From Naegleria gruberi (lineage: Eukaryota), in the NCBI GenBank assembly GCA_000004985.1, contig GG738878.1: 64,000 nt of DNA. One strand, written 5' to 3'. Shown here piece by piece: positions 15,873 to 50,697 of the stretch. Numbering within the stretch: position 1 is the first letter of the stretch; every line of letters starts with the position of its first letter. The notes beneath the pieces were generated by a model, which saw only the letters and a program-made list of their open reading frames with translations, searched no databases and had not been told where the DNA came from. A program made the position numbers and the translations under genes.

Positions 15873-17928
15873 ATGACAATAAAAAATATGAAAACTTCTT
15901 CCACATTTGCCTCCTCAAGCAATAAGTCTTCCTTATCATCAATGCGAGGAAGTGGATTGAATAAATTATTTTGTAGTAATAATGATTATTATCGGAAAAG
16001 TGTTTGGATATTTGTGTTGATTTGTTCGGTATGGATGATCATGATTGGAAGTGGAGTGGATGCATATAGAATTAATTTTGATGAAAGTCATGGGAGTGTA
16101 AGTGTTCTTTTTTGATCTTTGTGTGGAAAGAGAGATTTATCAATATTTGTGGAATTTTCAAATTATTTAGTTTACTTCGGATGTAACTCAGGGAAAATTA
16201 TTGGATGAATATGAATTGGGAATGTATGCTAGAGAGGATCTTCCATTGAGAGTTTTAACAAGACCCATTGCTAATGGTGACACATTTGTTCAAGTTTATT
16301 GTAAGTACACTATTTAATGATACAATATATTTACGAGGTTTTTTTAGTAAATGTTAAACAATCAAGCATTCCAACTCCTGATACCAAATTAGTTCTCATT
16401 GTTGCTAACAGTGAGATACTTGCAACTGGTTTTAAGAAGGATCAGAAAGTATGTAATAATTATTAATTCTGTTTGGATCTGATTGAAATTATATTTTAGA
16501 ATGAATATTTGTGTGGAGACGAAGGATTAGTTCCAACTTCTCAAAGCACACTCGATGATGATGGAATTTTATATTACAAATATTTCAGTGGAGATGAAGT
16601 AATTGATGAGAATTTCGAAGTGCCATTAACAGGTCTCTACCAATACAAATTATTCTACTGTCCTGCCACTAACCCAACTAAGGAAAGACCAAAGTCTGGT
16701 GAAGCCAATTTCAAAATGAATGGTTACATTCAATTCATCAATCCATATGGTCACTTGCCAGGTCAATATTTCTTCTTCTTGCCAGTATGTATATTTGCTT
16801 AATATTTTCCTAATAATTCAATTCCAGTTCCAAGCATTCATGACAATTGCTTATATTGTTTTTGCTGTCCTTTGGTTTTTGGCCTCTATTTTCAATAGAA
16901 AGGAATTCTTAACTCTCCAATTCTACATTACTATTGTCTTGATGAGTTGTTTAGCAGAAGCTTTGATTGTCTATTTTGATTACTTTTTAACTAACAAAAT
17001 TGGAAGTCGTAACTTTGTTGTTCAACTTTGCTCAATGGTTATGACTGTCATTAGAAAGACTTGGACTAGACTCATCATTTTGGTGGTTTGTTCAGGATAC
17101 TCAAGTGCCACAAAGGAGGAGGATGATGAATCATCTGAAAATACCTCTTCTCAAAAGAAAGTAACAACAACCATGATCATTATTTATTCAGTTATATTTG
17201 CAATTTCATGCTCAGTTTCAGAATTTGGAGAATTTTTATTCTTTAGAGAGCTCATTTCACACACTCAATATTTGATCTCCATGGTTCCAACATCCTGCTT
17301 GGATTTCTTCTTCTATGTCTGGGCTCTTTACTTGCTCTACCATACTATGAAGATGTACAAGCCTTCAAATCCAAAAGCTGTCACTGCCAGAGAAAGGGCT
17401 TCCCCAGAATGGAAACATGCAGTTGCCAATAACCACTACTTCTACTTGTATAGAAGATTAATGTTTGCCATGATTATTTACGCTTGGACTGTGCTTATTT
17501 TCTTAGTTCTCCAATTCTTCTACGAATATGGTCAATACTACAGAAGTGCTTGGTATTTGAACTGGCTTTTTGACTCTGCATCTTACCAAATTGCATTCTT
17601 TGCCTTCTTTGTTTTAGTTGGTTTATTGTACAGACCTGCCAAACACAACTCACTTTACTTACATTCTGAACAACTCCCAACTGATGAATTGGATGCTGAT
17701 ATGATGCTAAAGGAAGGTACTGGTCTCGAATATCAAAGTGACGATAGTGATGAAAAGGATGTAGAAATGATGATGATGCAAAATAATGAGCCAATATCTA
17801 ACGATGACGAATCTGACTCTAAGGAAAGCAGAAAGAGTCAAGAAAAACTTGTATTCTCTGAAGATCATGAAACCCCAACAAGTACAACTCCTGCAGTTGA
17901 GAAGGTTGAGACCACCACTCAACAATAA
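15873..17928 (+). CDS. Lung seven-transmembrane receptor family protein (GPR107/GPR108/TMEM87-like), about 613 aa. Five exons: 15873..16097, 16171..16300, 16348..16448, 16500..16784 and 16828..17928.
   Basis: Four introns have GTAAGT/GTATGT donors and AG acceptors that all keep the frame (phases 0,1,0,0). The lumenal domain is followed by 7 TM helices (FQAFMTIAYIVFAVLWFLASIF..., LQFYITIVLMSCLAEALIVYFDYF... and so on) and an acidic C-tail, matching the GPR107 architecture. Confidence 0.7.
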
Positions 17929-17939
17929 CTGTAAATAAA

Positions 17940-19679
17940 TTATTTATTATTTTCCTTCTCATTCTGGTAATTATTTATTGTTATGAAAAGTTTGTTGACG
18001 AGCCAATCAACAAGTGGTGAATGGGATTGCATATCTTTGAGTATCTTTTCTAATTCTTCTCCACTTCTTTTATCTTCACAATCTAGAATTCTTTCGAATA
18101 AATCTCCCATATTGGAAAGAACAAGATCTGACTTACTATGATCAAAATGGAGCTTGTCATCCTTAATAGTGACATAACCAAGCTTTTCGTAAATCTTATA
18201 AGTACTTATTGCTGAGATTATGTATGGTCTCAAACTTGACTTGTCAAACATGGCAAATCGTCTAAAATCTTGCATTGCAAAGGAGGCAAGTGATCTTGAC
18301 AACTCCTCAGATGAAATGTGACCATTCTTGTGGAGGAGCCTCATAGTAAAGAGTGCAGTAAGTTCAGCTCTTGGTTCTTCGAGGAGAGATTTAGTATCAA
18401 CCTTGATGTGTTCCTTAATGAACTCCAAGTTGTAAATTGCATGGCCAATTTCATGAGCAGCAATGTGATTCTTAATTGTATCGATGGTATTAATGTAGGA
18501 AGCAAGTTCTTCACTATTTTCACAGACCTTATTGACTAAACTGATGGTTTGGTGTCGTCTGGATTCGGTTGCTACTGGATCGAAATAAATCTTTACACCC
18601 TTCTTATTCTTTACTTCAGTTCTATTAGGAATGGATTGTCCAGAGAATTTAAAAGACAAGGATTGACCACAATGGAAAGGAATTGAATAAATGGAACACA
18701 TTGAGTTTTCGACAGCATAAATTCCATTGTCAGCAATTTCAGTATTTCTTGATTTGAAGTATTCAACCATTGATCCTTGAACTTTGGTCTTGATAAAATT
18801 GTTGGTTGATTCGTATTCTTCATCTACAAGACGGCAGCTGAAATCAGGAATACTCTTACATCTCAAAACATCTCCATATCCATACTCAATATCGTGAACA
18901 TATTGAATGTATGATTTCACATCCATCCACAATTCATCCAATTCAGTATTGAGTGTTTCCAATTTTTCTTTATCAGTTTCAATCAAAGTTTCTCTATATT
19001 TTTCAATATATTTAATATAAGCTTCCAAATCTTCATAATTTTCTCCACTATTTCTCAATGAATACAAATCATTCAATAATTCAGAAAATTGATTAATAAT
19101 TGGAGCAAATTCATTCTTGAAAAATTCACCATAAGAAACATCATAAAACTCATTAGTGGCCTCGTCCAACAAGATAATAGTATAAGAATTTGTTAATTTC
19201 CTATCAATAGTTGAAGCTCTCTTTTCCAATTCTTCAGCAACCTTATTTCCTTGAACTGCCTTCATCCACTTGACATAGAACGGATGATACTGTCCAGAAA
19301 TCATAGCAGCATGACGTAACAATGCACTATCAAACTTATTAAACAAATGATCAACTCCAGAATCCTTTTCCAAAGCCAAATATACAAAATCTCTTGCCAA
19401 TTGTTGTCTCTTATTACAAACATCAACAATTTTATAAAACTCTTCTGTAAAATCGGTAATTCCCTCAAAATTCTGATGAATAGCAGCTTGTGCTACAAGT
19501 GATTGTTTTTCCTCTCCGAGAATATTCAAGTCTTGTTGGAAATCTTGATGAGTAGCAAAGATTTCATCTGTAACCGAAACAATTTTCTTCAATAGGGGAA
19601 TTCGGGAGAGATTGGAAAAGCCTGATTTATATTGATTGAAAAGGGATTTGGAGGATTGAAGCAAAAGTGATGACGCCAT
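17940..19679 (-). CDS. Putative zinc metallopeptidase (HExxH gluzincin-like), 579 aa.
   Basis: AAHEIGHAIYNLEF is an HEIGH zinc-binding motif with a downstream Glu-containing stretch (EEPRAELTALF). The family is not assigned. Its stop lies only 11 bp from the stop of the convergent upstream gene. Confidence 0.5.
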   Translation of the reverse strand: MASSLLLQSSKSLFNQYKSGFSNLSRIPLLKKIVSVTDEIFATHQDFQQDLNILGEEKQSLVAQAAIHQNFEGITDFTEEFYKIVDVCNKRQQLARDFVYLALEKDSGVDHLFNKFDSALLRHAAMISGQYHPFYVKWMKAVQGNKVAEELEKRASTIDRKLTNSYTIILLDEATNEFYDVSYGEFFKNEFAPIINQFSELLNDLYSLRNSGENYEDLEAYIKYIEKYRETLIETDKEKLETLNTELDELWMDVKSYIQYVHDIEYGYGDVLRCKSIPDFSCRLVDEEYESTNNFIKTKVQGSMVEYFKSRNTEIADNGIYAVENSMCSIYSIPFHCGQSLSFKFSGQSIPNRTEVKNKKGVKIYFDPVATESRRHQTISLVNKVCENSEELASYINTIDTIKNHIAAHEIGHAIYNLEFIKEHIKVDTKSLLEEPRAELTALFTMRLLHKNGHISSEELSRSLASFAMQDFRRFAMFDKSSLRPYIISAISTYKIYEKLGYVTIKDDKLHFDHSKSDLVLSNMGDLFERILDCEDKRSGEELEKILKDMQSHSPLVDWLVNKLFITINNYQNEKENNK

Positions 19680-19780
19680 TTTTTTTAATAAATTATTTAT
19701 ATTTTATTAATACTTTACAATGCAGTATTTAAATATATTTAATGTTTAGCTATGGACAAGGTAGTATTTAAAGATGATGA

Positions 19781-21206
19781 TTATTGAATGAGATCAGAGA
19801 TGGCTCTTTGAATATCACCTTCATACCTATTCAATAAGGTAATATTAAGAATGTGATTGGTGAAACCCATTTGATTCAATAATTTCAATTCTTTTTGATA
19901 TTTGTGTGGAATGGTTGTTTTCACAACTGGTTCTTCTTCTTCATCAGGAATTGATTCAATAATTGGATCTTGATTTTCAAGATTTTGATTGGAAACTTGT
20001 TGAGCTTGTTGTTGATTGACTGATTCATTTTCTTCTTGAGAAGCAATTGTTTCTTGTTGAATTTGTTCAACGACTGATTCAATTGGTTGATCTTCAATTA
20101 AATTGGAGAGAAGCAATGAAGTGGTCATTGTTGGAGTATTTTCAGTAACAATTTCTTAGTTCTTGAATTGGTTCTTCTTCTTTTGGTTGAGAAACAACAA
20201 TTGCAGATGGAGAAGTTTGAATTGGTTTCTCTTCTTGTTTCTTTTCTTGAGTTTGTGATTGTTGACTCTTTTGCTCTTCTTCTCTCATTTCCTTCATTCT
20301 TTGAAGTAATAATTCTCTGAATGATTGAGGTGTAGTTTCCTTCTTTTCTTTCTTTGTTTCTTCCTTTTCTGGTTGTTGTTGTTGTTGAGCAGCTTCATTA
20401 CTTGTTGGAATTCCCAAAAGATCAGCAAGACTAATTTCAATTCTTCTCACTTTTGGTTTTGTTTGAGGAGTGGAAGCAGAAACTTGTGGAAAGAATGATT
20501 GTTTTGGTTGAGCTGGATTTTCATTTGAGAAGGCAGATCTAAATGCCTTTTCAATCATATTTTCCCAAGATTGTTCTGCTTGTTGTTGAGGAGATTGTTT
20601 CTTTTGAGATTCAACTCTTGGTTGTTGGAATTGAGCAAATAAACATGCTGATGGTGATGCTTGTGAAATTCTATTGAAGGCAATATGTTGTTGAGGATAT
20701 TGTTGAGGATATGCTTGTTGTTGTGGTGATTTGATTGATTTCTTTTCACAAATAATCTTGGTCAATTTTCCTTTCATTAATTTCAACATGAATTGGAAAT
20801 CTCTTAAATTGGTCAATGAAACCAAATCATCTTCATCATCAACATAATGTAATTCAAATTGTCTCCTATCAATGGAATGTTCTCTCAAAACTCTATCAAA
20901 TAATTCGAAACTTCTCTCATGATTAGAATCAATTTCAAATCTCAAAACATTTGAAGCACTATTCAAATTGTGATTGAATTTTCCTTCAAAAACATAAATT
21001 TTGAATGGAACATTTCTTTCAACTTGTCTTGTTTGTGGAGAAATCAAAAGTGGAATTTTCTTTACATTATTTGCAAAATGTTGAGTTGGATAATCATTGA
21101 ATGATGAAGTTTCTCTCAAATTTGGATAAGAAACTTGTCTTGGAATAGTTTGTTGTTGAGGTTGGAAAGCAGCTGCAGTAGAAATTGGAATGTGGATGAA
21201 ACTCAT
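19781..21206 (-). pseudogene. PB1-UBA protein (p62/SQSTM1-like), frameshifted paralog of the gene at 46540..47979. It is split into ORFs 20142..21206 and 19781..20128.
   Basis: Alignment to the intact copy shows an 11-nt deletion (copy 2 caagaacAAGTGAAGGAGAAAGaaattg versus copy 1 caagaacTAAGaaattg) plus a 3-nt in-frame indel. Otherwise the two copies are about 97% identical. Confidence 0.55.
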
Positions 21207-21876
21207 TTTGATTTGGTTGATTGATATTTAGTAGTAGTATTATTTACACTTCTTAATATTCAGATTTTGTACACAAAATTTGACAAGTAGTTTAAAAGAC
21301 TAGTTGTTGATGTTAATTAATTTTTTTTCTTATTGTTTTGCTTTCACATTTTTCACTCTTGATCTATTTATAGTTTTGATAAGGAAAATAATTTGAACGT
21401 GCTCAATACTTTGTACTCACAACAAGCGCAGTTATTTTTGTCGATTGAGTGAAGAACTCACAAATTCTTAATGTGTGATTGAAGGAAAGGAACCCACGGA
21501 ATTTCATACGGAATGTTATTTTTATCTTCGGAAGCAGAAATTTCCTTACTCGATTAAACTCAAGGAAACCAAAACAATCAAATGATAACATTCTTCCAAT
21601 CATTCAGTAAGGAAGTCATCAAAATTACACCCCATGTTTTTACCTCCCTCTGCCCTCAATGTTATTGTTCTGTTCAATTCTTGCTTGGATGGAATAATAA
21701 TGGAGGAGGATAGGAATCTACATCTTTAACGGTCATTCTTTCATACTTTCAATCTCAGTACTGAAGATTGATCCGTTTTGTTTGAAGAAATGAACATTAT
21801 TCTATAACTTATCAAAGTGTTACTAAGGGATGAGAGAAAAATTTCAAACTGGGGATCTGGAAAGCTTAAACTTCAC

Positions 21877-23154
21877 TCAATATAATCCCTTATATGTAAG
21901 TGATGTTAATTGTTTCATTTCCCTTATATATTTGACTCCTTCATCACCAATTCGATTGGCACGAATATTAAGTGATATCAACTGTTTCATTTCACTTATC
22001 AATTTGGTTCCTTCATCACCAATTTGATTGTAAGAAATATCAAGTGATTTTAATTGTTTCATTTCACTCATAGATTTGGCTCCTTCATCACCAATTCGAT
22101 TGCCAGAAATATTAAGTGATGTTAATTGTTTCATTTCACTTATTAATTTGGCTCCTTCATCACCAATTTGATTGTTAGAAATATCAAGTGATGTTAATTG
22201 TTTCATTTCACTTATCAATTTGACTCCTTCACCACCAATTTGATTGTTAGAAATATTAAGTGATGTTAATTGTTTCATTTCACTTATCAATTTGGCTCCT
22301 TCATCACCAATTAGATTGTCAGAAATATTAAGTGATGTTAATTGTTTCATTTCACTTATAAACTTGGCTCCTTCTACACCAATTAGATTGTCAGAAATAT
22401 CAAGTGATGTTAATTGTTTCATTTCACTTATGAATTTGGCTCCTTCACCACCAATTTGAGTGAAACCAATATTAAGTGATGTTAATTGTCTGGTTTCACT
22501 TATCAATTTGGCTCCTTCATCACCAATTTCATTTTCACAAATATTAAGTGATATCAACTGTTTCATTTCACTTAGATATTTGGCCCCTTCTACACCAATT
22601 CGATTGCAACAAATATTAAGTGATGTTAATTGTTTCATTTCACTTATCAATTTGGCTCCTTCATCACCAATTAGATTGTCAGAAATATTAAGTGATGTTA
22701 ATTGTTTCATTTCACTTATCAATTTGGCTTCTTCATCACCAATTTCATTTTTACCAATATTGAGTGATATCAACTGTTTCATTTCACTTATCAATTTGGC
22801 TTCATCACCAATTCCATTGCCAGAAATATCAAGTGATGTCAATTGTTTCATTTTGCTAATGAATTTGGCTTCTTCAAAAGAATCAAGCAACCAATCAGAA
22901 TATGTAACATTAACAATACAATTCATAAATTGACTTTTCAAAAATAATTGAACTCGTGTCTTTGTAAATTTTTTGTTAAATTGAATAGCAAGTTTTGAAC
23001 GTTCCTTGATCACATTAAAGAATTGTTTTGAAATCAAGGAACAATTATTTAAAATAAACCATGAATCATCAATCATGGAAATTATTTCAAAACAAATGTC
23101 ATCTGAAAATATTTCTTGTTCCACTTTCACACCCTTTTTTACTTTCTCTTCCAT
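21877..23154 (-). CDS. F-box-like protein with about 13 ribonuclease-inhibitor-type leucine-rich repeats (LRR paralog 1).
   Basis: F-box-like segment DDICFEIISMIDDSWFILNNCSLISKQFFNVIKE. The 24-aa repeats have consensus LTSLNISxNxIGDEGAKLISEMKQ, each encoded by a 72-bp unit. The N-terminus is truncated relative to the paralogs by a stop upstream of the MEEK start. Confidence 0.7.
   Translation of the reverse strand: MEEKVKKGVKVEQEIFSDDICFEIISMIDDSWFILNNCSLISKQFFNVIKERSKLAIQFNKKFTKTRVQLFLKSQFMNCIVNVTYSDWLLDSFEEAKFISKMKQLTSLDISGNGIGDEAKLISEMKQLISLNIGKNEIGDEEAKLISEMKQLTSLNISDNLIGDEGAKLISEMKQLTSLNICCNRIGVEGAKYLSEMKQLISLNICENEIGDEGAKLISETRQLTSLNIGFTQIGGEGAKFISEMKQLTSLDISDNLIGVEGAKFISEMKQLTSLNISDNLIGDEGAKLISEMKQLTSLNISNNQIGGEGVKLISEMKQLTSLDISNNQIGDEGAKLISEMKQLTSLNISGNRIGDEGAKSMSEMKQLKSLDISYNQIGDEGTKLISEMKQLISLNIRANRIGDEGVKYIREMKQLTSLTYKGLY
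21890..22830 (-). repeat. Tandem array of about 13 near-identical 72-bp units (the coding LRR modules of paralog 1).
   Basis: Visible 72-nt periodicity, for example the recurring gtgatgttaattgtttcatttcacttatcaatttggctccttcatcaccaatt. Confidence 0.8.
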
Positions 23155-23772
23155 ATTATTATTATTAAAATTGTTAGTGAATATTATTTGTTAAATATCT
23201 CCTCCGAATTAATGAATTGCTGATTTTCAAATTCTTATTTTTTTTTAAATGAGAAAATTTACACAGTTCGGACGATCATATGTTTTTTTAATAAATATTT
23301 AATATTTACTATTAGATGTAATTAGAAAAGTTGGGATAGGAAGATAGGAACTATTGTGCTTTGAAATATTTACATGAACCAATTTTATTCACCGAGTACA
23401 AATCAAACAATATTATATTGAATAATAAGAAAGATAGGGAAAACAATTTGAACGTGCTCAATACTTTGAATCACAACACAAATCCAGATTTATTGAATTG
23501 TTCTTTGCAGATTAAGTAAGAACTCACAATTTGTTAATGTGTATGAAAGGAACTTACAAAATTTCACACGGAATTTTATGTTTATCTTCAGGCAGAAATT
23601 TCCTTACTAGATTAAACTACCCATTCTATAACAAAAATAACAAAATCACATTCCGTATGAAATTCCAATCAAGTGATAACATTGATAAGTTATAGAATAA
23701 TGTTCATTTCTTCAAATACAAGCAAGAGTCTTTAAAGCTAAGATTGGGAAGGTCTTCACTCAATTTAATCCC

Positions 23773-25128
23773 TTATATGAGCGTAATTGATGTTAATTGT
23801 TTCATTTCACTTATCAATTTGGCTCCTTCACCACCAATTCGATTGTCAGCAATATTAAGTGATGTTAATTGTTTCATTTCACTTATAAGTTTAGCTCCTT
23901 CTATACCAATTTGATTGTAAGAAATATCAAGTGATTTTAATTGTTTCATTTCACTTATCAATTTGGTTTCTTCATCACCAATTTCATTGTTAGAAATATT
24001 AAGTAATGTTAATTGTCTCATTTCACTTATCAATTTGGTTCCTTCATTACTAATTCGATTGCTACGAATATTAAGTGATATCAACTGTTTCATTTCACTT
24101 ATCAATTTGACTCCTTCTATACCAATTCTATTGTTAGAAATATTAAGTGATCTTAATTGTCTCATTTCACTTATGAATTTGGCTCCTTGATTAACAATTC
24201 GATTGGCACGAATATTAAGTGATATCAACTGCTTCATTTCACTTATCAATTTGGCTCCTTCATCACCAATTAGATTGTTAGAAATATTAAGTGATGTTAA
24301 TTGTTTCATTTCACTTATCAATTTGGTTCCTTCTATACCAATATCACTTTCACCAATATTAAGCGATGTTAATTGTCTCATTTCACTTATCAATTTGACT
24401 CCTTCAATACCAATTCGATTGCCACAAATATTAAGTGATGTTAATTGTCTCATTTCACGTATGCATTTGGCTCCTTCAACATCAACTTGAGTGTAAGAAA
24501 TATCAAGTGATGCTAATTGTTTCATTTCACTTATATATTTGGCTCCTTCATCAATTTCATTTTTACCAATATTGAGTGATATCAACTGTTTCATTTCACT
24601 TAGATATTTGGCTCCTTCATCACCAATTAGATTGGCAGAAATATCAAGTGACGTTAATTGTTTCATTTCACTTATCAATTTGGCTTCTTCATCACCAATT
24701 CCATTGCCAGAAATACTAAGTGATGTCAATTGTTTCATTTTACTAATGAATTTGGCTTCTTCAAAAGAATCAAGCAACCAATCAGAATATGTAACATTAA
24801 CAATACAATTCATAAATTGACTTTTCAAAAATAATTGAACTCGTTTCTTTGTAAATTTTTTTTTAAATTGAATAGTAAGTTTTGAACGTTCCTTGATCAC
24901 ATTAAAGAATTGTTTTGAAATCAAGGAACAATTATTTAAAATAAACCATGAATCATCAATCATGGAAATTATTTCAAAACAAATGTCATCTGAAAATATT
25001 TCATGTTCCAGTTTTACAACCTTTTTTGATTTCTCTTCCATATTATTATTATTAAAATTGTTAGTGAATATTTCCTCCGAATTAATGAATTGATGATTTT
25101 CAAAATCTTGTCTGTTTCGTTTGCTCAT
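23773..25128 (-). CDS. F-box-like/RI-type LRR protein (LRR paralog 2, 451 aa), tandem to paralog 1.
   Basis: Same architecture as paralog 1. The N-terminus MSKRNRQDFENHQFINSEEIF... is almost identical to that of the gene at 45393. Confidence 0.7.
   Translation of the reverse strand: MSKRNRQDFENHQFINSEEIFTNNFNNNNMEEKSKKVVKLEHEIFSDDICFEIISMIDDSWFILNNCSLISKQFFNVIKERSKLTIQFKKKFTKKRVQLFLKSQFMNCIVNVTYSDWLLDSFEEAKFISKMKQLTSLSISGNGIGDEEAKLISEMKQLTSLDISANLIGDEGAKYLSEMKQLISLNIGKNEIDEGAKYISEMKQLASLDISYTQVDVEGAKCIREMRQLTSLNICGNRIGIEGVKLISEMRQLTSLNIGESDIGIEGTKLISEMKQLTSLNISNNLIGDEGAKLISEMKQLISLNIRANRIVNQGAKFISEMRQLRSLNISNNRIGIEGVKLISEMKQLISLNIRSNRISNEGTKLISEMRQLTLLNISNNEIGDEETKLISEMKQLKSLDISYNQIGIEGAKLISEMKQLTSLNIADNRIGGEGAKLISEMKQLTSITLI
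23780..24720 (-). repeat. Tandem array of 72-bp LRR-coding units (paralog 2).
   Basis: 72-nt periodicity. The units are about 85-95% identical to each other and to the array at 21890..22830. Confidence 0.8.
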
Positions 25129-25225
25129 TTTTTAATAAAATTTTAATAATATTTAATTTTTTTAGAATATGGTGTGATTGATCACTTGTAAGTATTGACT
25201 TCATCACAATCCTTCAAGTGTTCTC
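25129..25225 (-). promoter_or_regulatory. Conserved 5' flank (about 95 bp) shared by the LRR paralogs. The same block occurs at 45297..45392 upstream of paralog 3.
   Basis: Near-identical sequence gaaggattgtgaagtcaatacttacaagtgatcaatcacaccatattctaaaaaaattaaatattattaaaattttattaaaaaATG in both copies. Confidence 0.4.
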
Positions 25226-31162: not shown

Positions 31163-32697
31163 ATGACAAACCAACAACAAGATGGTGGAGTAATTAACAC
31201 CACCTTCTCATCACCTCCAAACCAACAGTTTCGTATAAATTCACCACCTTCTCTCACTAACCTGACAAGTCAAACTTCATCTCAAGACACAATGCTTGCT
31301 GACTCACCAACCAAGATCAATAACAGTTCTCTTAATAGAAGAGAGTCCTCCACTCAAAAATCTACAACTAAAAGTTTACCATCCTCATCCAAAACTCCAA
31401 GAAGCTCCTCAGTTACAGGTTTCCATTCGAGAAACTTTCGTATATATACATGCTGTGGTATTCTAGAGCTGAATTGCTTGAAAATGACAAGTTTCCTTGC
31501 CTTGATCGTTAGTTTATTTGCTTTTGCATCCTTGATTGTGATCATTAGTGTAAACTATTCGATTGTTGCAGGTTTCAAAGCAACATTAGCAAATTTAGAC
31601 ACTGACGGAACTTATTACAGAGAATTAATGAAGTTATCTGCACGTGCTGCAGTCACAGCTGAATATAACAGAACATTGTCATTGGAATATGTCAATTTGT
31701 ACAATAATTATTACTATTTATACTATGTAGATTTAAACGCAACCATTGCAAATGTTCCTGCTTCAGTGCTGTATTGGAATCAACACAACATGTTGAGAGA
31801 CGATGTCAAATCCAGAAGAGCTGTCAAGATGGAAATCACCATGATGGTTCAAGTGACAAGTGGCAACTATTCTGCAGCTTTACAAACTCTCGATTCAGCT
31901 CAATACAAAGATTTATTAACAGGTTACCAGGAAGAAGTTCAAAGTATCTTTGATTATGCCGATAACATGAAAGAACAAAGTGCAAATCTCGATTTGGCAA
32001 CCACAACTGCTGCACTGATCATAGCCTGCACTTCCATTGTAATTGTGGTTCCTGTTCTGATTGTGTTTATTGTGTTGAGTGTCAAGAAAGATAATTCGAA
32101 AGAGAAACAATTGAGACAAGTGAAGAAATACATGATTATGGACACGATTAATGATCCTTCAGTGGTGGAAAAGTTTAAAGATTTTTGCAAACAAGAGAGA
32201 AGTGAAGAGAATTTTGCATTATTGGAAAAGATTAACGAATATAAGAAATTGTGTGAAAGAAGTTTCGATATTCAGGTTTTCTTATTCGATACTGATGTTT
32301 TGAGTAGTTCAGATCAATTTTCTGAGATGACTTCGTCGAGTAATGATGATTCTTCCAAGAAGAAGAACAAAGCAAAAAGGGATATACTGAAAAGGATTTA
32401 TTGGAAATTGAAAAGAAGAAATTCGAAATTGCATTCGAAATTTATTCAGAATTTTTGGATGTTCGTGGTGATCGTTCAGTGAATATCAGTAAGGCATTTG
32501 CTGATAATGTGAAACAACACTTGGATTATTTCGCAAAGGGAGAAAACGAATCCATTCCAGAAAGTTTATTCGAAAGTATTGAATACGAAATGTGTGTCTT
32601 GATGATGGACACTCACCACAGATTCAAACAACACTTGGAATTGCAAATGAAAGAAAAGAAACAAATCTTGTCTTCTCTCAAGAAATCCAAAAAGTAA
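31163..32697 (+). CDS. Transmembrane RGS-domain protein, paralog 1. The frame is broken by a 1-nt deletion at about 32373 and continues as ORF 32401..32697.
   Basis: Ser-rich N-terminus, a CCGILELNC motif, a TM helix, an extracellular region, a second TM, then an RGS domain (FKDFCKQERSEENFALLEKINEYKK ... EIYSEFLDVRGDRSVNIS...MMDTHHRFKQ). Compared with paralog 2 (gctaaaaaggg), this copy reads gcaaaaaggg, one nucleotide short. Confidence 0.6.
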
Positions 32698-33320: not shown

Positions 33321-34874
33321 ATGACAGGTACAACAATCGAAATGCTAGATAGTAGTGCTACGAACATTAATACTTCCACAACTAGCTTTTCCTCCAATCA
33401 AATCAACAGAATCAACTCTCCACCTTCAGTCAACCTGACCAGTTTGACCTCTTCACAAGATTCCATGATTCCAACATCACCAACCAATAATTCCAACTCT
33501 ATGAACAGAAGAGATTCCACTCACAAATCCACAACTGGTAAAAGTTTACCATCCTCATTGAAAACACCAAGAACTTCATCTGTTACTGCTTTCCATTCGA
33601 AAAACTTTCGTATACATACATGTTGTGGCATTCTAGAGCTGAATTGCTTGAAAATGACAAGTTTGGCAGCACTTGTTGTTAGTTTATTCGCATTTACTGC
33701 CTTAATTGCAATCATTAGTTTAAACTATTCAGTAGTTGCCACCTATCACTCAAGTTTAGAAACTTTAGAAACTTCTGGAACTTATTACAGAGAATTGATG
33801 AAATTATCTGCACGTGCTGCAGTCACAGCTGATTATAACAGAACCTTGTCATTGGAATATGTCGACTTGTACAATAGTTATTTTAAAGAGTATTATGTAG
33901 TAATGAATAATTTAATTGCAAACGTTCCTCCTTCAGTGCTGTATTGGAATCAACATAACATGTTGAGAGAAAATGTCAAATCAAGAAAAGCTGTCAATAT
34001 GGAAGTTGCCATGATGTCACAAGTCACAAATGGAAATTATACAGCAGCTCTCAGATCCCTCGATTCAGATCAATACAAAGATTTGCTAACAGGTTATGAA
34101 GAAGAAGTTCAAAGTATCATTGATTATGTCGCCGACCTTAAATATTCGAATGCAGAAATGGATTTGGCAACCACAACTGTTGCCTTGATTATTATTTGCA
34201 TTTCTCTGGCAATTGTTATTCCAGTTCTGATTGTATTTGTATTATTGAGTGTTCAGAAAGATAATTCGAAAGAGAAACAATTGAGACAAGTGAAGAAATA
34301 CATGATTATGGATACGATTAATGATCCTTCTGTGGTGGAGAAGTTTAAAGATTTTTGCAAACAAGAGAGAAGTGAAGAAAATTTTGCATTGTTGGAAAAG
34401 ATTAATGAGTATAAGAAATTGTGTGAAAGAAGTTTCGATATTCAGGTTTTCTTATTCGATACTGATGTATTGAGTAGTTCAGATCAATTTTCTGAAACAA
34501 CAACATCCAGTACTGAAGACGCATCCAAGAAGAAGAACAAAGCTAAAAAGGGATATACTGAAAAAGATTTAATGGAAATTGAAAAGAAGAAATTCGAAAT
34601 TGCATTCGAAATTTATTCAGAATTCTTGGATGTTCGTGGTGATCGTTCAGTGAATATCAGCAAGGCATTTGCTGATAATGTGAAACAGCATTTGGATTAT
34701 TTCGCAAAGGGAGAAAATGAATCCATTCCAGAAAGTTTATTCGATAGTGTGGAATACGAAATGTGTGTCTTGATGATGGACACCCACCACAGATTCAAAC
34801 AATTTATGGAAGTTTCCCTCAAGGAAAAGAAACAAATTCTTTCAACATTGAAGAGAAAAACTGTAAAAAAGTAA
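33321..34874 (+). CDS. Transmembrane RGS-domain protein, paralog 2 (intact, 517 aa).
   Basis: Same architecture as paralog 1 (about 80% identity) with an uninterrupted ORF and a complete RGS domain. Confidence 0.65.
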   Translation: MTGTTIEMLDSSATNINTSTTSFSSNQINRINSPPSVNLTSLTSSQDSMIPTSPTNNSNSMNRRDSTHKSTTGKSLPSSLKTPRTSSVTAFHSKNFRIHTCCGILELNCLKMTSLAALVVSLFAFTALIAIISLNYSVVATYHSSLETLETSGTYYRELMKLSARAAVTADYNRTLSLEYVDLYNSYFKEYYVVMNNLIANVPPSVLYWNQHNMLRENVKSRKAVNMEVAMMSQVTNGNYTAALRSLDSDQYKDLLTGYEEEVQSIIDYVADLKYSNAEMDLATTTVALIIICISLAIVIPVLIVFVLLSVQKDNSKEKQLRQVKKYMIMDTINDPSVVEKFKDFCKQERSEENFALLEKINEYKKLCERSFDIQVFLFDTDVLSSSDQFSETTTSSTEDASKKKNKAKKGYTEKDLMEIEKKKFEIAFEIYSEFLDVRGDRSVNISKAFADNVKQHLDYFAKGENESIPESLFDSVEYEMCVLMMDTHHRFKQFMEVSLKEKKQILSTLKRKTVKK

Positions 34875-44554: not shown

Positions 44555-45392
44555 AGTTGTTTGTCCCTTCTTGTGTTTTTTGTGGTGTCTTTTTGCTGAT
44601 GAACGCAGAAATCGCACAGAAAGGTTAAAAACGTTTTTTTTTGCGTAAAAATTTTTTTAAGGATTTTATCGTTGCGGGTAAACGAGAAAACTCCGAGTTG
44701 AAAGGTCATCATTCTCTCAAGAAATTGCAATTCTGTTTCAATCAATGGGACAACACAAGTGGGTAATGCAATATATTACTCCATTTCTCCTCAACTTCCT
44801 TGCAATACAAAGTCTAACTTCTGGTTGATTTTATTTGTGAGAAAGAGAAAAAAACATTGAGGGAAAATGCATCATCCAATATTGTTAAACCTTCTCACAT
44901 TTTCCACTGCACCTGCTCTTTATCCATCCAGTAACTGCAGTTTACAGTACAGTTGGAAAATTGTTTGGATACGGCTCCACCTTATCTGAATAGCAAACCC
45001 TTTTCTCAAAGATCCAAAGGGCAGTTTCTCAATGAACCAATGAGATGCAGTAAGTAGTGGGAGCTTTGTAAACTTGAAAAGATCAATTGCGTAAATCATT
45101 TATTTGAATAAATTTTCAAATCTGCCAAATAACCAAAGAAGGGAGCTGTTTCTTACAAATTTTCTTTGAATTCTTGTATAATTCTCCAAGTGAATTCTAA
45201 TATAATGGAAATTTCCAATAGGAATTGTTGCATTAATGAGATGGTTCCACAACAATAAACTTCTCCTTTGGTTGCATACCATCTCACCAAATAATTTCTC
45301 GAATCTATGAAGGATTGTGAAGTCAATACTTACAAGTGATCAATCACACCATATTCTAAAAAAATTAAATATTATTAAAATTTTATTAAAAA

Positions 45393-46040
45393 ATGAGCAA
45401 ACGAAACAGACAAGATTTTGAAAATCATCAATTCATTAATTCGGAGGAAATATTCACTAACAATTTTAATAATAATAATATGGAAGAGAAATCAAAAAAA
45501 ATTGTAAAACTGGAACAAGAAATATTTTCAGATGACATTTGTTTTGAAATAATTTCCATGATTGATGATTCATGGTTTATTTTAAATAATTGTACTTTAA
45601 TTTCAAAACAATTCTTTAATGTGATCAAGGAACGTTCAAAACTTGCTATTCAATTTAAAAAAAAATTTACAGAGAAACGAGTTCAATTATTTTTGAAAAC
45701 TCAATTCATGAATAGTATTGTTAATGTTACATTTTCTAGTTGGTTGCTTGATTCTTTTGAAGAAGCCAAATTCATAACTGAAATGAAACAGTTGATATCA
45801 CTTAATATTCGTGGCTATGATTTTGGTGATGAAGAAGCCAAATTGATAAGTGAAATGAAACAATTAACATCACTTGATATTTCTTACAATCAAATTGGTG
45901 ATGAAGGAGCCAAATATCTAAGTGAAATGAAACAGTTGATATCACTTAATATTCGTGGCAATCGAATTGGTGATGAAGGAGTCAAATATATAAGTGAAAT
46001 GAAACAATTAACATCACTTACATATAAGGGATTATATTGA
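45393..46040 (+). CDS. F-box-like/RI-type LRR protein, paralog 3 (215 aa, only about 4 LRR units).
   Basis: The N-terminal 110 aa are about 95% identical to paralog 2. The C-terminus LTSLTYKGLY is the same as paralog 1. The repeat array has far fewer 72-bp units. Confidence 0.7.
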   Translation: MSKRNRQDFENHQFINSEEIFTNNFNNNNMEEKSKKIVKLEQEIFSDDICFEIISMIDDSWFILNNCTLISKQFFNVIKERSKLAIQFKKKFTEKRVQLFLKTQFMNSIVNVTFSSWLLDSFEEAKFITEMKQLISLNIRGYDFGDEEAKLISEMKQLTSLDISYNQIGDEGAKYLSEMKQLISLNIRGNRIGDEGVKYISEMKQLTSLTYKGLY

Positions 46041-46539
46041 GTGAAGTTTAAGCTTTCCAGATCCCCAGTTTGAAATTTTTCTCTCATCCCTTAGTAACAC
46101 TTTGAAAAGTTATAGAATAATATTCATTTCTTCAAACAACACGGATCAATCTTCAGTACTGAGATTGAAAGTATGAAAGAATGACTGTTGTTTCGGTTTC
46201 CTTGAGTTTAATCGAGTAAGGAAATTTCTGCTTCCGAAGATAAAAATAACATTCCGTATGAAATTCCGTGAGTTCCTTTCCTTCAATCACACATTAAGAA
46301 TTTGTGAGTTCTTCACTCAATCGACAAAAATAACTGCGCTTGTTGTGAGTACAAAGTATTGAGCACGTTCAAATTATTTTCCTTATCAAAACTATAAATA
46401 GATCATGTGAAAAATGTGAAAGCAAAACAATAAGAAAAAAAATTAATTAACATCAACAACTGGTCTACTTGTCAAATTTTGTGTACAAAATCTTAAGAAG
46501 TGTAAATAATACTACTAAATACCAATCAACCAAATCAAA

Positions 46540-47979
46540 ATGAGTTTCATCCACATTCCAATTTCTACTGCAGCTGCTTTCCAACCTCAACAACAAACTA
46601 TTCCAAGACAAGTTTCTTATCCAAATTTGAGAGAAACTTCATCATTCAATGATTATCCAACTCAAAATTTTGTAAATAATGTAACAAAAATTCCACTTTT
46701 GATTTCTCCACAAACAAGACAAGTTGAAAGAAATGTTCCATTCAAAATTTATGTTTTTGAAGGAAAATTCAATCACAATTTGAATAGTGCTTCAAATGTT
46801 TTGAGATTTGAAATTGATTCTAATCATGAGAGAAGTTTCGAATTATTTGATAGAGTTTTGAGAGAACATTCCATTGATAGGAGACAATTTGAATTACATT
46901 ATGTTGATGATGAAGATGATTTGGTTTCATTGACAAATTTAAGAGATTTCCAATTCATGTTGAAATTAATGAAAGGAAAATTGACCAAGATTATTTGTGA
47001 AAAGAAATCAATCAAATCACCACAACAACAAGCATATCCTCAACAATATCCTCAACAACATATTGCCTTCAATAGAATTTCACAAGCATCACCATCAGCA
47101 TGTTTATTTGCTCAATTCCAACAACCAAGAGTTGAATCTCAAAAGAAACAAGCTCCTCAACAACAAGCAGAACAATCTTGGGAAAATATGATTGAAAAGG
47201 CATTTAGATCTGCCTTCTCAAATGAAAATCCAACTCAACCAAAACAATCATTCTTTCCACAAGTTGCTGCTTCCACTCCTCAAACAAAACCAAAAGTGAG
47301 AAGAATTGAAATTAGTCTTTCTGATCTTTTGGGAATTCCAACAAGTAATGAAGCTGCTCAACAACCAGAAAAGGAAGAAACAAAGAAAGAAAAGAAGGAA
47401 AGTACTTCTACACCTCAATCATTCAGAGAATTATTACTTCAAAGAATGAAGGAAATGAGAGAAGAAGAGCAAAAGAGTCAACAATCACAAACTCAAGAAA
47501 AGAAACAAGAAGAGAAACCTATTCAAACTTCTCCAACTGCAATTGTTGTTTCTCAACCAAAAGAAGAAGAAGAACCAATTCAAGAACAAGTGAAGGAGAA
47601 AGAAATTGTTACTGAAAATACTCCAACTATGACCACTTCATTGCTTCTCTCCAATTTAATTGAAGATCAACCAACTGAATCAGTCGTTGAACAAGTTCAA
47701 CAAGAAACAATTGCTTCTCAAGAAGAAACAGAATCAGTGAATCAACAACAAGCTCAACAAGTTTCCAATCAAAATCTTGAAAATCAAGATCCAATTATTG
47801 AATCAATTCCTGAAGAAGAAGAAGAACCAGTTGTGAAAACAACCATTCCACACAAATATCAAAAAGAATTGAAATTATTGAATCAAATGGGTTTCACCAA
47901 TCATATTCTTAATATTACCTTATTGAATAGGTATGAAGGTGATATTCAAAGAGCCATCTCTGATCTCATTCATCAATAA
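46540..47979 (+). CDS. PB1-UBA protein (p62/SQSTM1-like ubiquitin-binding scaffold), the intact copy (479 aa).
   Basis: N-terminal PB1 domain (VPFKIYVFEGKF...LHYVDDEDDLVSLTNLRDFQFMLKL, an OPCA-type acidic motif), a Q/E/K-rich linker and a C-terminal UBA (ELKLLNQMGFTNHILNITLLNRYEGDIQRAISDLI). Confidence 0.7.
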   Translation: MSFIHIPISTAAAFQPQQQTIPRQVSYPNLRETSSFNDYPTQNFVNNVTKIPLLISPQTRQVERNVPFKIYVFEGKFNHNLNSASNVLRFEIDSNHERSFELFDRVLREHSIDRRQFELHYVDDEDDLVSLTNLRDFQFMLKLMKGKLTKIICEKKSIKSPQQQAYPQQYPQQHIAFNRISQASPSACLFAQFQQPRVESQKKQAPQQQAEQSWENMIEKAFRSAFSNENPTQPKQSFFPQVAASTPQTKPKVRRIEISLSDLLGIPTSNEAAQQPEKEETKKEKKESTSTPQSFRELLLQRMKEMREEEQKSQQSQTQEKKQEEKPIQTSPTAIVVSQPKEEEEPIQEQVKEKEIVTENTPTMTTSLLLSNLIEDQPTESVVEQVQQETIASQEETESVNQQQAQQVSNQNLENQDPIIESIPEEEEEPVVKTTIPHKYQKELKLLNQMGFTNHILNITLLNRYEGDIQRAISDLIHQ

Positions 47980-48298
47980 TCATCAAGTTTAAATAAATAC
48001 TACCTTGTAAATATCTAAATATTAAATAATTCGCTTTACAAGTAGTTGCCTGTTAAGCCATGCATGTTAACCGTACTACAGAATGTAGTTATACTTGTAG
48101 TAGGAGGAAGATCATCTGTTGTTACAAGAGATTCACAAATCAAGTTCTTTATGTAATTGCCATCATTAATTTCTGTTTTTAGTATAATCTACAAATGTTT
48201 AATATTTTGATCTATGTCCTTCAATACATCTGTAACATTAGAATACTGCAAATTTTTCATCTTCTTAATAATATTTGATAAAGGAAGAACATCAAATT

Positions 48299-50697
48299 CT
48301 ACAAAGTGAATGTCGCTCCAAACTTTCTCGTCCACCTTTGAATAAAACTCAAAAGTTTCTTAACAACAATTGACAAGGCGTAAATGTCATGAAGAACTGT
48401 GAATCTTAATTTTGGGTCTGAAGGAGAGTAATCTTCCTTGTAGTTCACAATGCTGGACTGATTCAATAATGTTGAATTGTTAAAATCTATCAAAACTGCT
48501 TCAAAATCAGTTTCATTTTTCATTCTGAACATGATATTATGGACACTTATATCACAATGAACAACTCCATGTTCATGTAGACTTTCCAGAGCCCTAAGAC
48601 ATCCAATAACGGACTTTAAAATTATGTTTCTAACTATTACATTGAGATTTTCATAGATTTCGAGTTTTTGTAAAATATCTGTCAACTCTTCATAATTAAG
48701 CAACTTCTCTTGAACAGTTATATACAATAGATTATTGACCGGACCATAATAATAAATTTCACAAATATTAGTATTTTTTAAACCTTGAATAAGATTCATA
48801 ACTTGAATATTTTCAAACTTTTTGTTTGTGATCTTGAAATAAGATTCCTTAGTATTGTATTTCATTGTACCAAGCATTGTCTTTTGTTTTACAAGTTCAA
48901 TATTATAATTTGATCCAATATTCAAGTTATGAATCTCAGATGATAACATTATAACATTATTCTTGTTATCACCGTCATAAGCATCGTTGTCGTTATTATT
49001 GTTATCACTGTCATCATTACCATAATTGTCTTCACAATCAGTATCATTGTCGGTGTCATTATCATTGTGAAATTGCATTGAATTTAGTTGTTCTACAGTT
49101 CGTATAGAAACCTTCAATACGTAATATACAACTTTTTTTGTAGTATTCCTTAATTTGAAAACTAGTTCTATTTCGTTAGTGGGATGGACGCAATTTTTTC
49201 CCCTTAATAATACTTGCAAAGGAAATCCTTCTGTTTGGGCATTGCTTTTTAAAAACACACATGTCCTATTTTTTTCCTTTTTGAAAATATTATCTGCGTA
49301 ACTATTCATAGTATATTTTGTAATGTTTTTGTGGGGAGGTAAGGGAAACGATAATAATTTTGAAAATACATCTAGAGCTTCATTGTAAGAGTTAAATTCT
49401 AATATGTCAAGTGAAGCGAATCGGTCATAATTGAGATTGAAAAATGGTAAGTCACAAAGTCCTGGATGGAACACAGACTTTGATGATGTTGGAGTGTCAG
49501 CAATCTTTTCTACAAACGACAAACTCTTTTGATTGAACTGAGAGTTTAGAAACCTTCTTCCAATCTGAAGAATAATAGACATTACTTTTGAAATACCGTA
49601 TGGAGTAGTGAAATCATACCATATGCTAGTATATAATCTATAACTATAACTAAAATATTGTTTGTTATCAACTTTAGGAATCAAAAATAATCTCAAAAAG
49701 CAAATTTTGGTACCGGCTGATAGAGACCCAAAAACGTCCAACTCAGTGTCAGAACTTAGCAATTTTCTTTCAAACAGTTCAAAGAGCAACTCTGTTAATG
49801 ATCCTCTCATTAACAACACCACTTTCTTAAAGTCAGGATGATCATACACACTATCTATTTCAATAGGTTTCCATTCTCCAAAAAAGAAACGCCAATCAAA
49901 ATTTTCTAAAACATTAACTCTTGTCAATATTGTGCCAGGCATGAAGTATTTTGTTGTGAAATATCGAGTCAGTCTGGATTGGTTGGATAGTGCATCTTCG
50001 TTTACATTTCTTAAAAAGAATTTGAAAATGTTCGTTGAAATACTTACGCTCTCGATGAAATCTGTCCATTAGAAATGCTTGTAAGGTACGAAAATATGAT
50101 TGAGAGTGATTCGTGATAGTTAATTTCATAATTTTGCTCAAAATGCAAGTTTCTTAAAGCAAAGAGAGGAGATAACAACGGATTTGGATTTCCCTTATTG
50201 TAACTTGAAAAAAGATCATTAGAGAACTCTATAGGACAATTCACGTTTCCTATTTTGTCTTTTTGAAGTACCTGAGTCATAGTTTGCTCCAAAAAACTCA
50301 TTTCTTTGTTGTCGTCAAAACCAATACCGCTCTTTTTAAGAGAAATTAAGCCTTTAGCCAAGAAGGATTTAGTACTTGTGTTTAGATGTGGAGCAACTTG
50401 TTGATTATCTGCTTCTATCTGATCTACATGAATTTCATTTACATTTCCATATACATGTTTCATAATCAAATCATTCTTTGTATTATGTGAAGCCTCAACA
50501 TAAGCACTCTCCCATGCAGATTGGAGGTGATTTGGTATTTTGTTTGAAAAGATATCAGAACCAAATGTATGTAAACTAACCACTGAAAGCACATCAAATG
50601 AATCTCCCAATACATCACCATTTAAAAGATTAGCCTTTTGAGTGTTCTTATTAAACATTCCAGGCCAATACAGCATTCCATTTGTTCCGAATATCAA
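48299..50697 (-). CDS. Protein with a C-terminal divergent protein-kinase-like domain. Two exons, 50048..about 50697 and 48299..50009, with a 38-nt intron. The start codon is uncertain.
   Basis: Exon 1 ends ...NGQISSR-GC|GTAAGT. The 38-nt intron ends ...ttttaag, and exon 2 continues A-NVNEDALSNQSRLTRYFTTKYFMPGTILTRV.... The kinase-like motifs are HEHGVVHCDISVHNIMF (catalytic-loop-like) and LIDFNNS (a DFG-like motif with G replaced by N, so possibly a pseudokinase). There is an acidic DN/DT low-complexity insert. Confidence 0.5.

Follow-up and report, generated by a model that had tools for sequence, protein, structure and literature searches.

Some of the closest described counterparts of the genes reported here are bacterial. 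The GALA/RipG type III effectors of Ralstonia solanacearum combine an F-box with 24-residue GALA-type leucine-rich repeats (LRRs), and LegL1 of Legionella invites the same comparison. These are secreted effectors of bacteria, whereas the three genes that we describe, A, B and C, are eukaryotic and lie in a 64,000-nucleotide stretch of Naegleria gruberi DNA (contig GG738878.1 of assembly GCA_000004985.1), which we call the window. Kajava 2008 placed GALA-LRRs in the subfamily of LRRs that contain cysteine (CC-LRR) and noted that they are often linked to F-boxes, protists included. In GALA proteins, positive selection is reported to act on the convex helix face, at positions 8, 11, 15 and 17 of the Kajava numbering (PMC2244805). 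The pattern in A, B and C is the opposite: the equivalent residues (E14, K17, E21 and K23) are invariant or nearly so, while variation is found where the strand ends and in the loop that follows it. The GAxALA signature of the GALA proteins is only partly kept here (GAK-L/Y-I-S).

Among eukaryotic proteins, the FBXL receptors (SKP2, FBXL2, FBXL5, FBXL17, TIR1 and COI1) share the same order of an F-box, linker LRRs and an LRR solenoid, and the structure predicted here superposes on FBXL structures over nearly its full length. FBXL repeats are typically 26 residues long, contain cysteine and differ from one another, whereas the units here have 24 residues and are near-identical in DNA outside about 8 codons; the F-box here also falls below the Pfam thresholds. 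The expanded F-box families of nematodes and plants are adaptors of the SCF (Skp1-Cul1-Rbx1) ubiquitin ligase in which variation and positive selection are concentrated in the substrate-recognition domain (PMC8120010). Most of them use other recognition domains (FTH, FBA or kelch), and their diversity lies between paralogues or alleles, whereas here it lies between the tandem units of one gene. Since nematodes and plants already provide examples of F-box families that have expanded and evolve fast, the Naegleria genes belong to a known kind of gene family. Near-identical repeats that differ at a few surface positions despite recombination are also familiar from the xxLxLxx positions of plant resistance-gene LRRs and from the repeat-variable residues of transcription activator-like (TAL) effectors. 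Unlike those systems, the genes here have no NB-ARC, kinase domain or DNA-binding repeat type, and nothing in them suggests a one-unit, one-ligand-element code.

The segment 21877-25128 of the window consists of exactly two complete open reading frames (ORFs) on the minus strand, gene A (21877-23154, 425 residues) and gene B (23773-25128, 451 residues). Gene C (45393-46040, plus strand, 215 residues) is a short paralogue of both. We assign a probability of about 0.65 to the reading that the three genes encode SCF substrate receptors with a diversifying binding surface on a scaffold that is kept uniform by recombination. This reading starts from the architecture, homology, fold, position-specific variation and recombination traces observed in the three genes. 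Their layout, a divergent F-box followed by two degenerate LRRs and then by an array of 24-residue GALA-like units, is the FBXL architecture. By analogy with the FBXL receptors, they would act in a ubiquitin ligase, and the variable face would bind the substrates.

In the mechanism that we propose, the three-helix N-terminal module would dock on the Skp1 subunit of SCF, and the LRR solenoid would present a target-binding surface. Unequal crossing-over and gene conversion would keep the framework of the units near-identical at the DNA level and alter the number of units (3 versus 13). Differences would be kept or driven where the strand ends and in the loop (positions 2, 5, 7, 8 and 10, counted from the Leu that follows MKQ), and likewise at helix positions 13, 16 and 18, so that nearly every unit would carry its own surface signature. 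The work follows up an original prediction, made from the window alone, whose observation it confirms and whose interpretation it supports, with corrections on the repeat class, the variable positions, the rate ratio and the F-box thresholds.

Repeat units and their variable positions

The arrays had been described as strings of near-identical 72-bp LRR units whose number differs sharply between paralogues, and Tandem Repeats Finder, the reading frames and motif counts bore this out. Tandem Repeats Finder reported a 72-bp period at 21892-22876 (13.7 copies, 85% matches, score 1380), at 23784-24763 (13.7 copies, 81% matches, score 1203) and at 45758-46025 (3.7 copies). A 33-nt unit motif, allowing up to 3 mismatches, occurred 24 times in the window, always inside one of the three arrays, and was never found in shuffled sequence. 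Counted as full 24-residue units, the arrays contain 13 in gene A (21910-22842, minus strand), 13 in gene B (23797-24729, minus strand) and 3 in gene C (45792-46007, plus strand). Unit 1 of gene A (A01) and unit 3 of gene B (B03) are 69 bp long, each through an in-frame deletion of a single codon. The recomputed consensus of the units, LTSLNIS(D/G)N(Q/R)IGDEGAKLISEMKQ, matched the one originally proposed.

The statistics of variation cover the 29 units of A, B and C. L1, L4, I6, K17, E21 and Q24 are invariant in this set; N9 occurs in 25 of the units, and 27 have I11. The positions with an amino-acid entropy above 1 bit are 2, 5, 7, 8, 10, 13, 16 and 18, and at position 8 we found ten different residues. 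The mean pairwise nucleotide identity between units is 67.5% in these 8 variable codons and 93.6% in the other 16. The 29 units carry 25 distinct five-residue signatures. Nonsynonymous change, placed on a minimum spanning tree of the units, is far from uniform along the unit (chi-square 185, 23 degrees of freedom, p ~1e-27). On the same tree, changes at the first, second and third codon positions number 39, 52 and 21 in the variable codons and 8, 16 and 22 in the others. The list of variable positions given in the original prediction (5, 7, 8, 9, 10, 13, 18 and 19) was right about the concentration of the variation but omitted positions 2 and 16 and overrated 9 and 19. Other family members vary at the same positions as A, B and C, as seen in 26 units from the closest paralogues and 45 from the wider family, and the concentration of variation at a few positions of the unit is therefore solid.

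In AlphaFold models, the strand comprises unit positions 3-5 and the helix positions 13-20. The variable sites had been expected on the concave beta face, and in the models this holds for positions 2, 5, 7 and 8, which are predicted in or beside the strand on the concave side; it does not hold for position 10, modelled in the loop following the Asn, or for 13, 16 and 18, which belong to the helix. At position 16, where the GA motif has its small Ala, the changes are conservative (A, V or T).

That the arrays belong to the LRR superfamily is clear from the tandem LxxLxLxxNxL motif and from the strand/helix solenoid of the models. The Pfam families LRR_6, LRR_8 and LRR_4 all match, with LRR_6 scoring best (3.4e-63 for gene A and 2.2e-39 for gene B). 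Pfam shows LRR families only, and we found no NACHT/NB-ARC, TIR, kinase or transmembrane module in A, B or C. The prediction of ribonuclease inhibitor (RI)-type repeats did not stand, even though LRR_6 is the best profile: the units have 24 residues rather than the classical 28-29 and are GALA-like. The core positions of GALA-type repeats (N3, I5, G6, d7, G9, A10 and L13 in the Kajava numbering) are all present in register, and the segment N-x-I-G-D-E-G-A-K-x-I matches the GALA-LRR consensus of Kajava 2008. The GALA signature is defined as GAxALA without a conserved hydrophobic residue at position 16. Here it is partly kept, as G-A-K-(L/Y/F)-I-S, with a Met conserved at that position, and so resembles the GALA-like variant. 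The closest solved structures of the repeats are GALA-type LRRs, and the top Foldseek match of the gene C model is the LRR domain of RipG4, a GALA protein. In other words, the repeats are closest to the GALA and GALA-like LRRs of the CC-LRR subfamily, represented by RipG4 and LegL1.

Two subtypes of unit can be distinguished. Whenever position 2 is Ile, as it is in eight units, position 5 is Asn and position 7 is R, G or C. Where position 2 is Thr, position 7 is mostly Ser. The subtypes alternate in gene C, which is why Tandem Repeats Finder gives a 144-bp period for that gene. The arrays also carry long antisense ORFs, for example at 22460-22933 and 24203-24490 (both on the plus strand). We rejected these as genes and consider them by-products of the repeat, whose unit contains no stop codon in that frame.

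The N-terminal module

The original prediction of an F-box-like module at the N terminus was upheld by transitive homology and by the predicted fold. In gene A the F-box-like motif, IFSDDICFEIISMIDDSWFILNNCSLISKQFFNVIKER, lies at 22999-23112, and a linker at 22843-22998 separates it from the array. The corresponding segments of gene B are the motif at 24886-24999, with three helices in the predicted model, and the linker at 24730-24885. Each linker contains two degenerate, or cryptic, LRRs, seen in the AlphaFold models as strand/helix pairs that precede the first canonical unit.

Of the Pfam F-box profiles (PF00646 and PF12937), F-box-like is matched by 20 and F-box by 16 of 29 aligned members of the family, and three members (P0011, P0017 and P0026) pass the Pfam gathering score. 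The N-terminal region of B aligns to P0011 with E = 2e-19 and to P0017 with E = 1e-13, and both alignments span the motif. A profile of the family searched against PDB sequences gave 18 matches, every one of them an F-box protein aligned at its F-box. A model of B residues 38-181 (predicted local distance difference test (pLDDT) score 93.2) has helices at 10-18, 23-28 and 35-44. Its highest query-normalised TM-scores are to TIR1 (0.64), COI1 (0.64), FBXL2 (0.62) and KDM2A (0.61), and it superposes full-length on these four as well as on FBXL17 and FBXL5. As modelled, the three-helix bundle lies N-terminal to the recognition domain, as it does in SKP1-bound structures. Given this homology to threshold-passing paralogues and the predicted fold, we take the module to be a divergent F-box. 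Its motif is nearly invariant across the clade.

Recombination and duplication history

Unequal crossing-over or gene conversion had been proposed for the arrays, and several lines of evidence favor it. The interiors of the A and B arrays show no similarity diagonal, with or without the variable codons, and thus no unit-by-unit orthology. Units at the edges do correspond (A01 to B01 and A02 to B03, each at 96%), and A12 and B12 carry the same surface signature. Within gene A, an exact tract of 109 nt (22611-22719) is repeated five units away (22251-22359), both copies reading on the minus strand within the array; the tract marks a recent conversion or duplication event. The number of units differs fourfold between paralogues (3 versus 13). 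Finally, an environmental homologue with six units, X20 (P0020; L002 214-1143), has shared synonymous codons of its own. The codon for Asn9 is AAC in all 6 X20 units, as against AAT in all 25 position-9 Asn codons of A, B and C, and X20 uses GGT for Gly15 in 4 of 5 units and ATA for Ile11 in 4 of 5, unlike the consensus of the window. Gene-specific synonymous codons of this kind are a clear sign, at the level of sequence, of homogenisation within the gene. Taken together, the missing A/B orthology, the 109-nt tract and the X20 codons point to concerted evolution with diversification.

The three genes are part of an inverted segmental duplication. One arm (19773-25203) contains a frameshifted NBR1-like gene together with A and B, and the other (45318-47984) contains gene C and an intact NBR1-like gene. 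The arms are connected by the inverted repeats I1-I5 and I18, which are 92-97% complementary, and BLAST blocks agree. The 5' end of gene C resembles B, and its 3' end and downstream flank resemble A. Gene C may be the ancestral short form, or it may stem from a collapse in which B contributed the 5' part and A the 3' part.

Synonymous divergence (dS) in the N-terminal region is 0.037 between A and B and 0.12-0.16 between either of them and C, which suggests that the duplication of A and B is recent. The N-terminal coding regions of A and B are 98% identical, units A13 and B13 are 86% identical, and the C-terminal tails differ. The 3' flank of B (23433-23754) is about 79% like the flank shared by A and C (21302-21577 and 46205-46387, 98% identical to each other). 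These comparisons would instead fit an old tandem duplication of A and B, with a later conversion tract at the 5' end.

The NBR1-like gene encodes a PB1 domain and a C-terminal UBA domain. It is intact at 46540-47979 (479 residues), and the copy at 19781-21206 is broken by an 11-nt deletion into two ORFs, one of 354 and the other of 115 residues. This split copy is probably either a pseudogene or the result of a sequencing error.

Alternative explanations and the wider family

Several observations weigh against the receptor reading, and we present them here beside the explanations that they favor. One concerns geometry alone: in the models, position 13 opens the helix and positions 16 and 18 lie within it, so that these three variable sites are off the concave face. 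The others bear on selection, on the F-box and on the status of the genes.

The most serious competitor, although we consider it unlikely, is that constraint is simply relaxed, the x positions of the LRR being free to vary in arrays that are homogenised but under no selection for diversity. We fixed the exposed positions in advance from the pattern LxxLxLxxNx as 2, 3, 5, 7 and 8, with or without 10. On the spanning tree of the A, B and C units, nonsynonymous change at these positions exceeds the synonymous rate 2.4-2.7-fold (p = 1e-4 to 3e-6), compared with a ratio of 0.40 at the quiet codons. The most conservative count that we used, the number of distinct states minus one, cannot be inflated by recombination; it gives 1.69 times the synonymous rate at the exposed positions (p = 0.066) and 0.52 at the remaining ones. 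For the older arrays of two homologous genes on environmental contigs, the spanning tree gives 1.36 at the exposed positions, which is not significant (p = 0.11), and 0.62 at the others. Both of these lower ratios favor relaxed constraint, and the x positions hold most of the variation in any LRR protein. Relaxed constraint does not explain why conversion, which should erase differences in variable codons as readily as those at nearby synonymous sites, has left 67.5% identity in the former and 93.6% in the rest of the unit. Nor does neutral drift predict that the third positions of the variable codons should change less (21) than the first and second (39 and 52), and the spanning-tree ratio of 2.4-2.7 also speaks against it.

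A constraint on synonymous sites in the repeat framework would inflate the rate ratio, and we suspected one from the units of P0006 (L001 2086-2877). Compared with B, these units match the nucleotide framework of A, B and C nearly exactly, with no fixed differences and a proportion of synonymous differences (pS) of 0.16, as against 0.41 in the N-terminal domain. We therefore examined codon use in three homologues that are more distant. There, residues conserved in the framework have the A/B/C consensus codon in 66-68% of cases, no more often than in the N-terminal domain (55-68%). The framework synonymous sites thus show no special constraint, and we rejected such constraint as a general effect.

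Selection for diversity at the exposed positions is the best reading of these counts, though not formally proven. Two outcomes had been named beforehand as fatal to the prediction, uniform variation along the unit and no nonsynonymous excess at the exposed positions; neither was found. What had been claimed as selection on binding-surface residues is supported in so far as the excess lies at exposed positions, where the ratio exceeds 1 significantly in the spanning-tree count but only at a borderline level in the most conservative one.

Less probable is that the N-terminal module is the relic of an F-box that no longer binds Skp1, so that the proteins would work apart from the ubiquitin system, as scaffolds, decoys or inhibitors. 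The N-terminal regions of A and B, motif included, match no Pfam family even at E <= 10, gene C likewise has no Pfam F-box match at E <= 10, and none was found for two members of the clade searched singly. P0004, in which the W is kept, matches the Pfam F-box only at E = 0.045. In A, B and C the LP that opens the F-box is replaced by FS and the conserved W of helix 3 by F, and because of these replacements in the clade we infer Skp1 binding only by analogy. The hydrophobic pattern is retained despite them, and a relic would not be expected to keep a motif nearly invariant in the clade or an N-terminal domain with a nonsynonymous/synonymous ratio (dN/dS) of about 0.4 against C, a value by which the genes look functional. 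The predicted three-helix fold and its placement against the LRRs also match those of SKP1-bound FBXL structures.

It is more doubtful still that A, B or both arose by recent duplication, have no function and are turning into pseudogenes. The exact sequences of the two genes are absent from a collection of 15 billion proteins, in which the closest relative of gene A is 63% identical, and both are absent from the public gene set. Gene A has also lost the conserved N-terminal extension through an upstream stop, and the NBR1-like copy in the same duplicated arm is frameshifted. However, ORFs of 425 and 451 codons have remained free of stops although the GC content of the DNA is about 30%, length has changed only through in-frame deletions of single codons, and the core positions are invariant, as in a folded LRR.

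Least probable is an assembly artefact, in which the tandem pair or the inverted duplication would represent mis-joined haplotypes or a mis-assembled repeat: nothing supports this directly beyond the general proneness of arrays and duplicated segments to error in draft assemblies, whereas units that are 81-85% alike are easily assembled, A, B and C differ throughout (their shared parts are 92-98% identical and their flanks are different), and C and its neighbour follow one another as annotated genes on a single 395-kb scaffold.

A more specific extension of the receptor reading, which we regard as improbable, is that the genes form an intracellular immune-type repertoire. Recombination of the arrays would reshuffle and diversify the binding faces, with which the receptors would catch proteins of intracellular bacteria or giant viruses and deliver them to destruction through ubiquitin. 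If so, these would be the kind of host gene from which bacterial effectors of the GALA/LegL type were borrowed. In nematodes and plants, lineage-specific F-box families with fast-evolving recognition domains are candidates for recognising pathogens or toxins. The same pattern would appear here in unusually clean form, with a near-identical repeat framework and a few variable surface residues per unit, in a free-living amoeba, itself a host of Legionella, chlamydiae and giant viruses. It would offer a tractable place to seek amoebal defence or regulatory specificity, and it would give a eukaryotic counterpart of the bacterial GALA/LegL effectors.

The extent of the family in the genome had been put forward as a check, and a profile of the N-terminal module, searched against 1.84 billion representative sequences, matched only 87 clusters at a cutoff of E <= 1e-3; at E <= 1e-10 the number was 19. 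We sampled ten matches; all six that were named came from N. gruberi or N. lovaniensis, and those from N. lovaniensis bear the UniRef name 'F-box domain-containing protein'. The family has been seen so far only in Naegleria and in environmental sequences. Two metagenome scans with degenerate unit patterns returned 0 matches, and our literature searches found no description of this Naegleria family. Look-ups of the exact products of P0002, P0007 and a neighbouring gene in the window returned no DNA record, so that for N. gruberi the codon analysis covers the genes of the window.

By protein searches, the window belongs to N. gruberi strain NEG-M. The product of gene C is identical to XP_002675340.1 (NAEGRDRAFT_69393), and that of its neighbour at 46540-47979 is identical to NAEGRDRAFT_69394; both genes lie on the 395-kb scaffold. 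Thus gene C and the adjoining NBR1-like gene are annotated, whereas A and B were not found as exact proteins. The reference gene set seems to lack the clade's two longest arrays, and because these are its two largest members, counts of the family taken from annotation are underestimates.

Many members of the family begin with MSKRxRxD, which could be a localisation signal, ahead of a disordered stretch. In gene B the stretch is a predicted disordered N-terminal extension at 25000-25128 that begins MSKRNRQDF, a basic motif conserved in the family; in gene C it lies at 45393-45521, and residues 1-47 of the gene C model have pLDDT below 50. A basic start of the MSKR type is common to P0001-4, P0007, P0017, P0024 and P0060. 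Upstream of the ATG of gene A (23155-23334), a relic of the extension, IFTNNFNNNN, is kept, and an in-frame stop lies ahead of the ATG. Gene A therefore starts at an internal Met and is without the basic extension.

The window as a whole has a GC content of about 33% and is crowded with long intron-free ORFs. Neighbours with Pfam matches include a GOST seven-transmembrane protein (16720-17928), a DUF7897 protein (17940-19679) and a protein kinase (48299-49942); nothing ties them functionally to the LRR genes. A tandem pair of paralogues with RGS-domain matches occupies 31163-32482 and 33321-34874, in which blocks 79-91% identical recur at a spacing of about 2170 bp.

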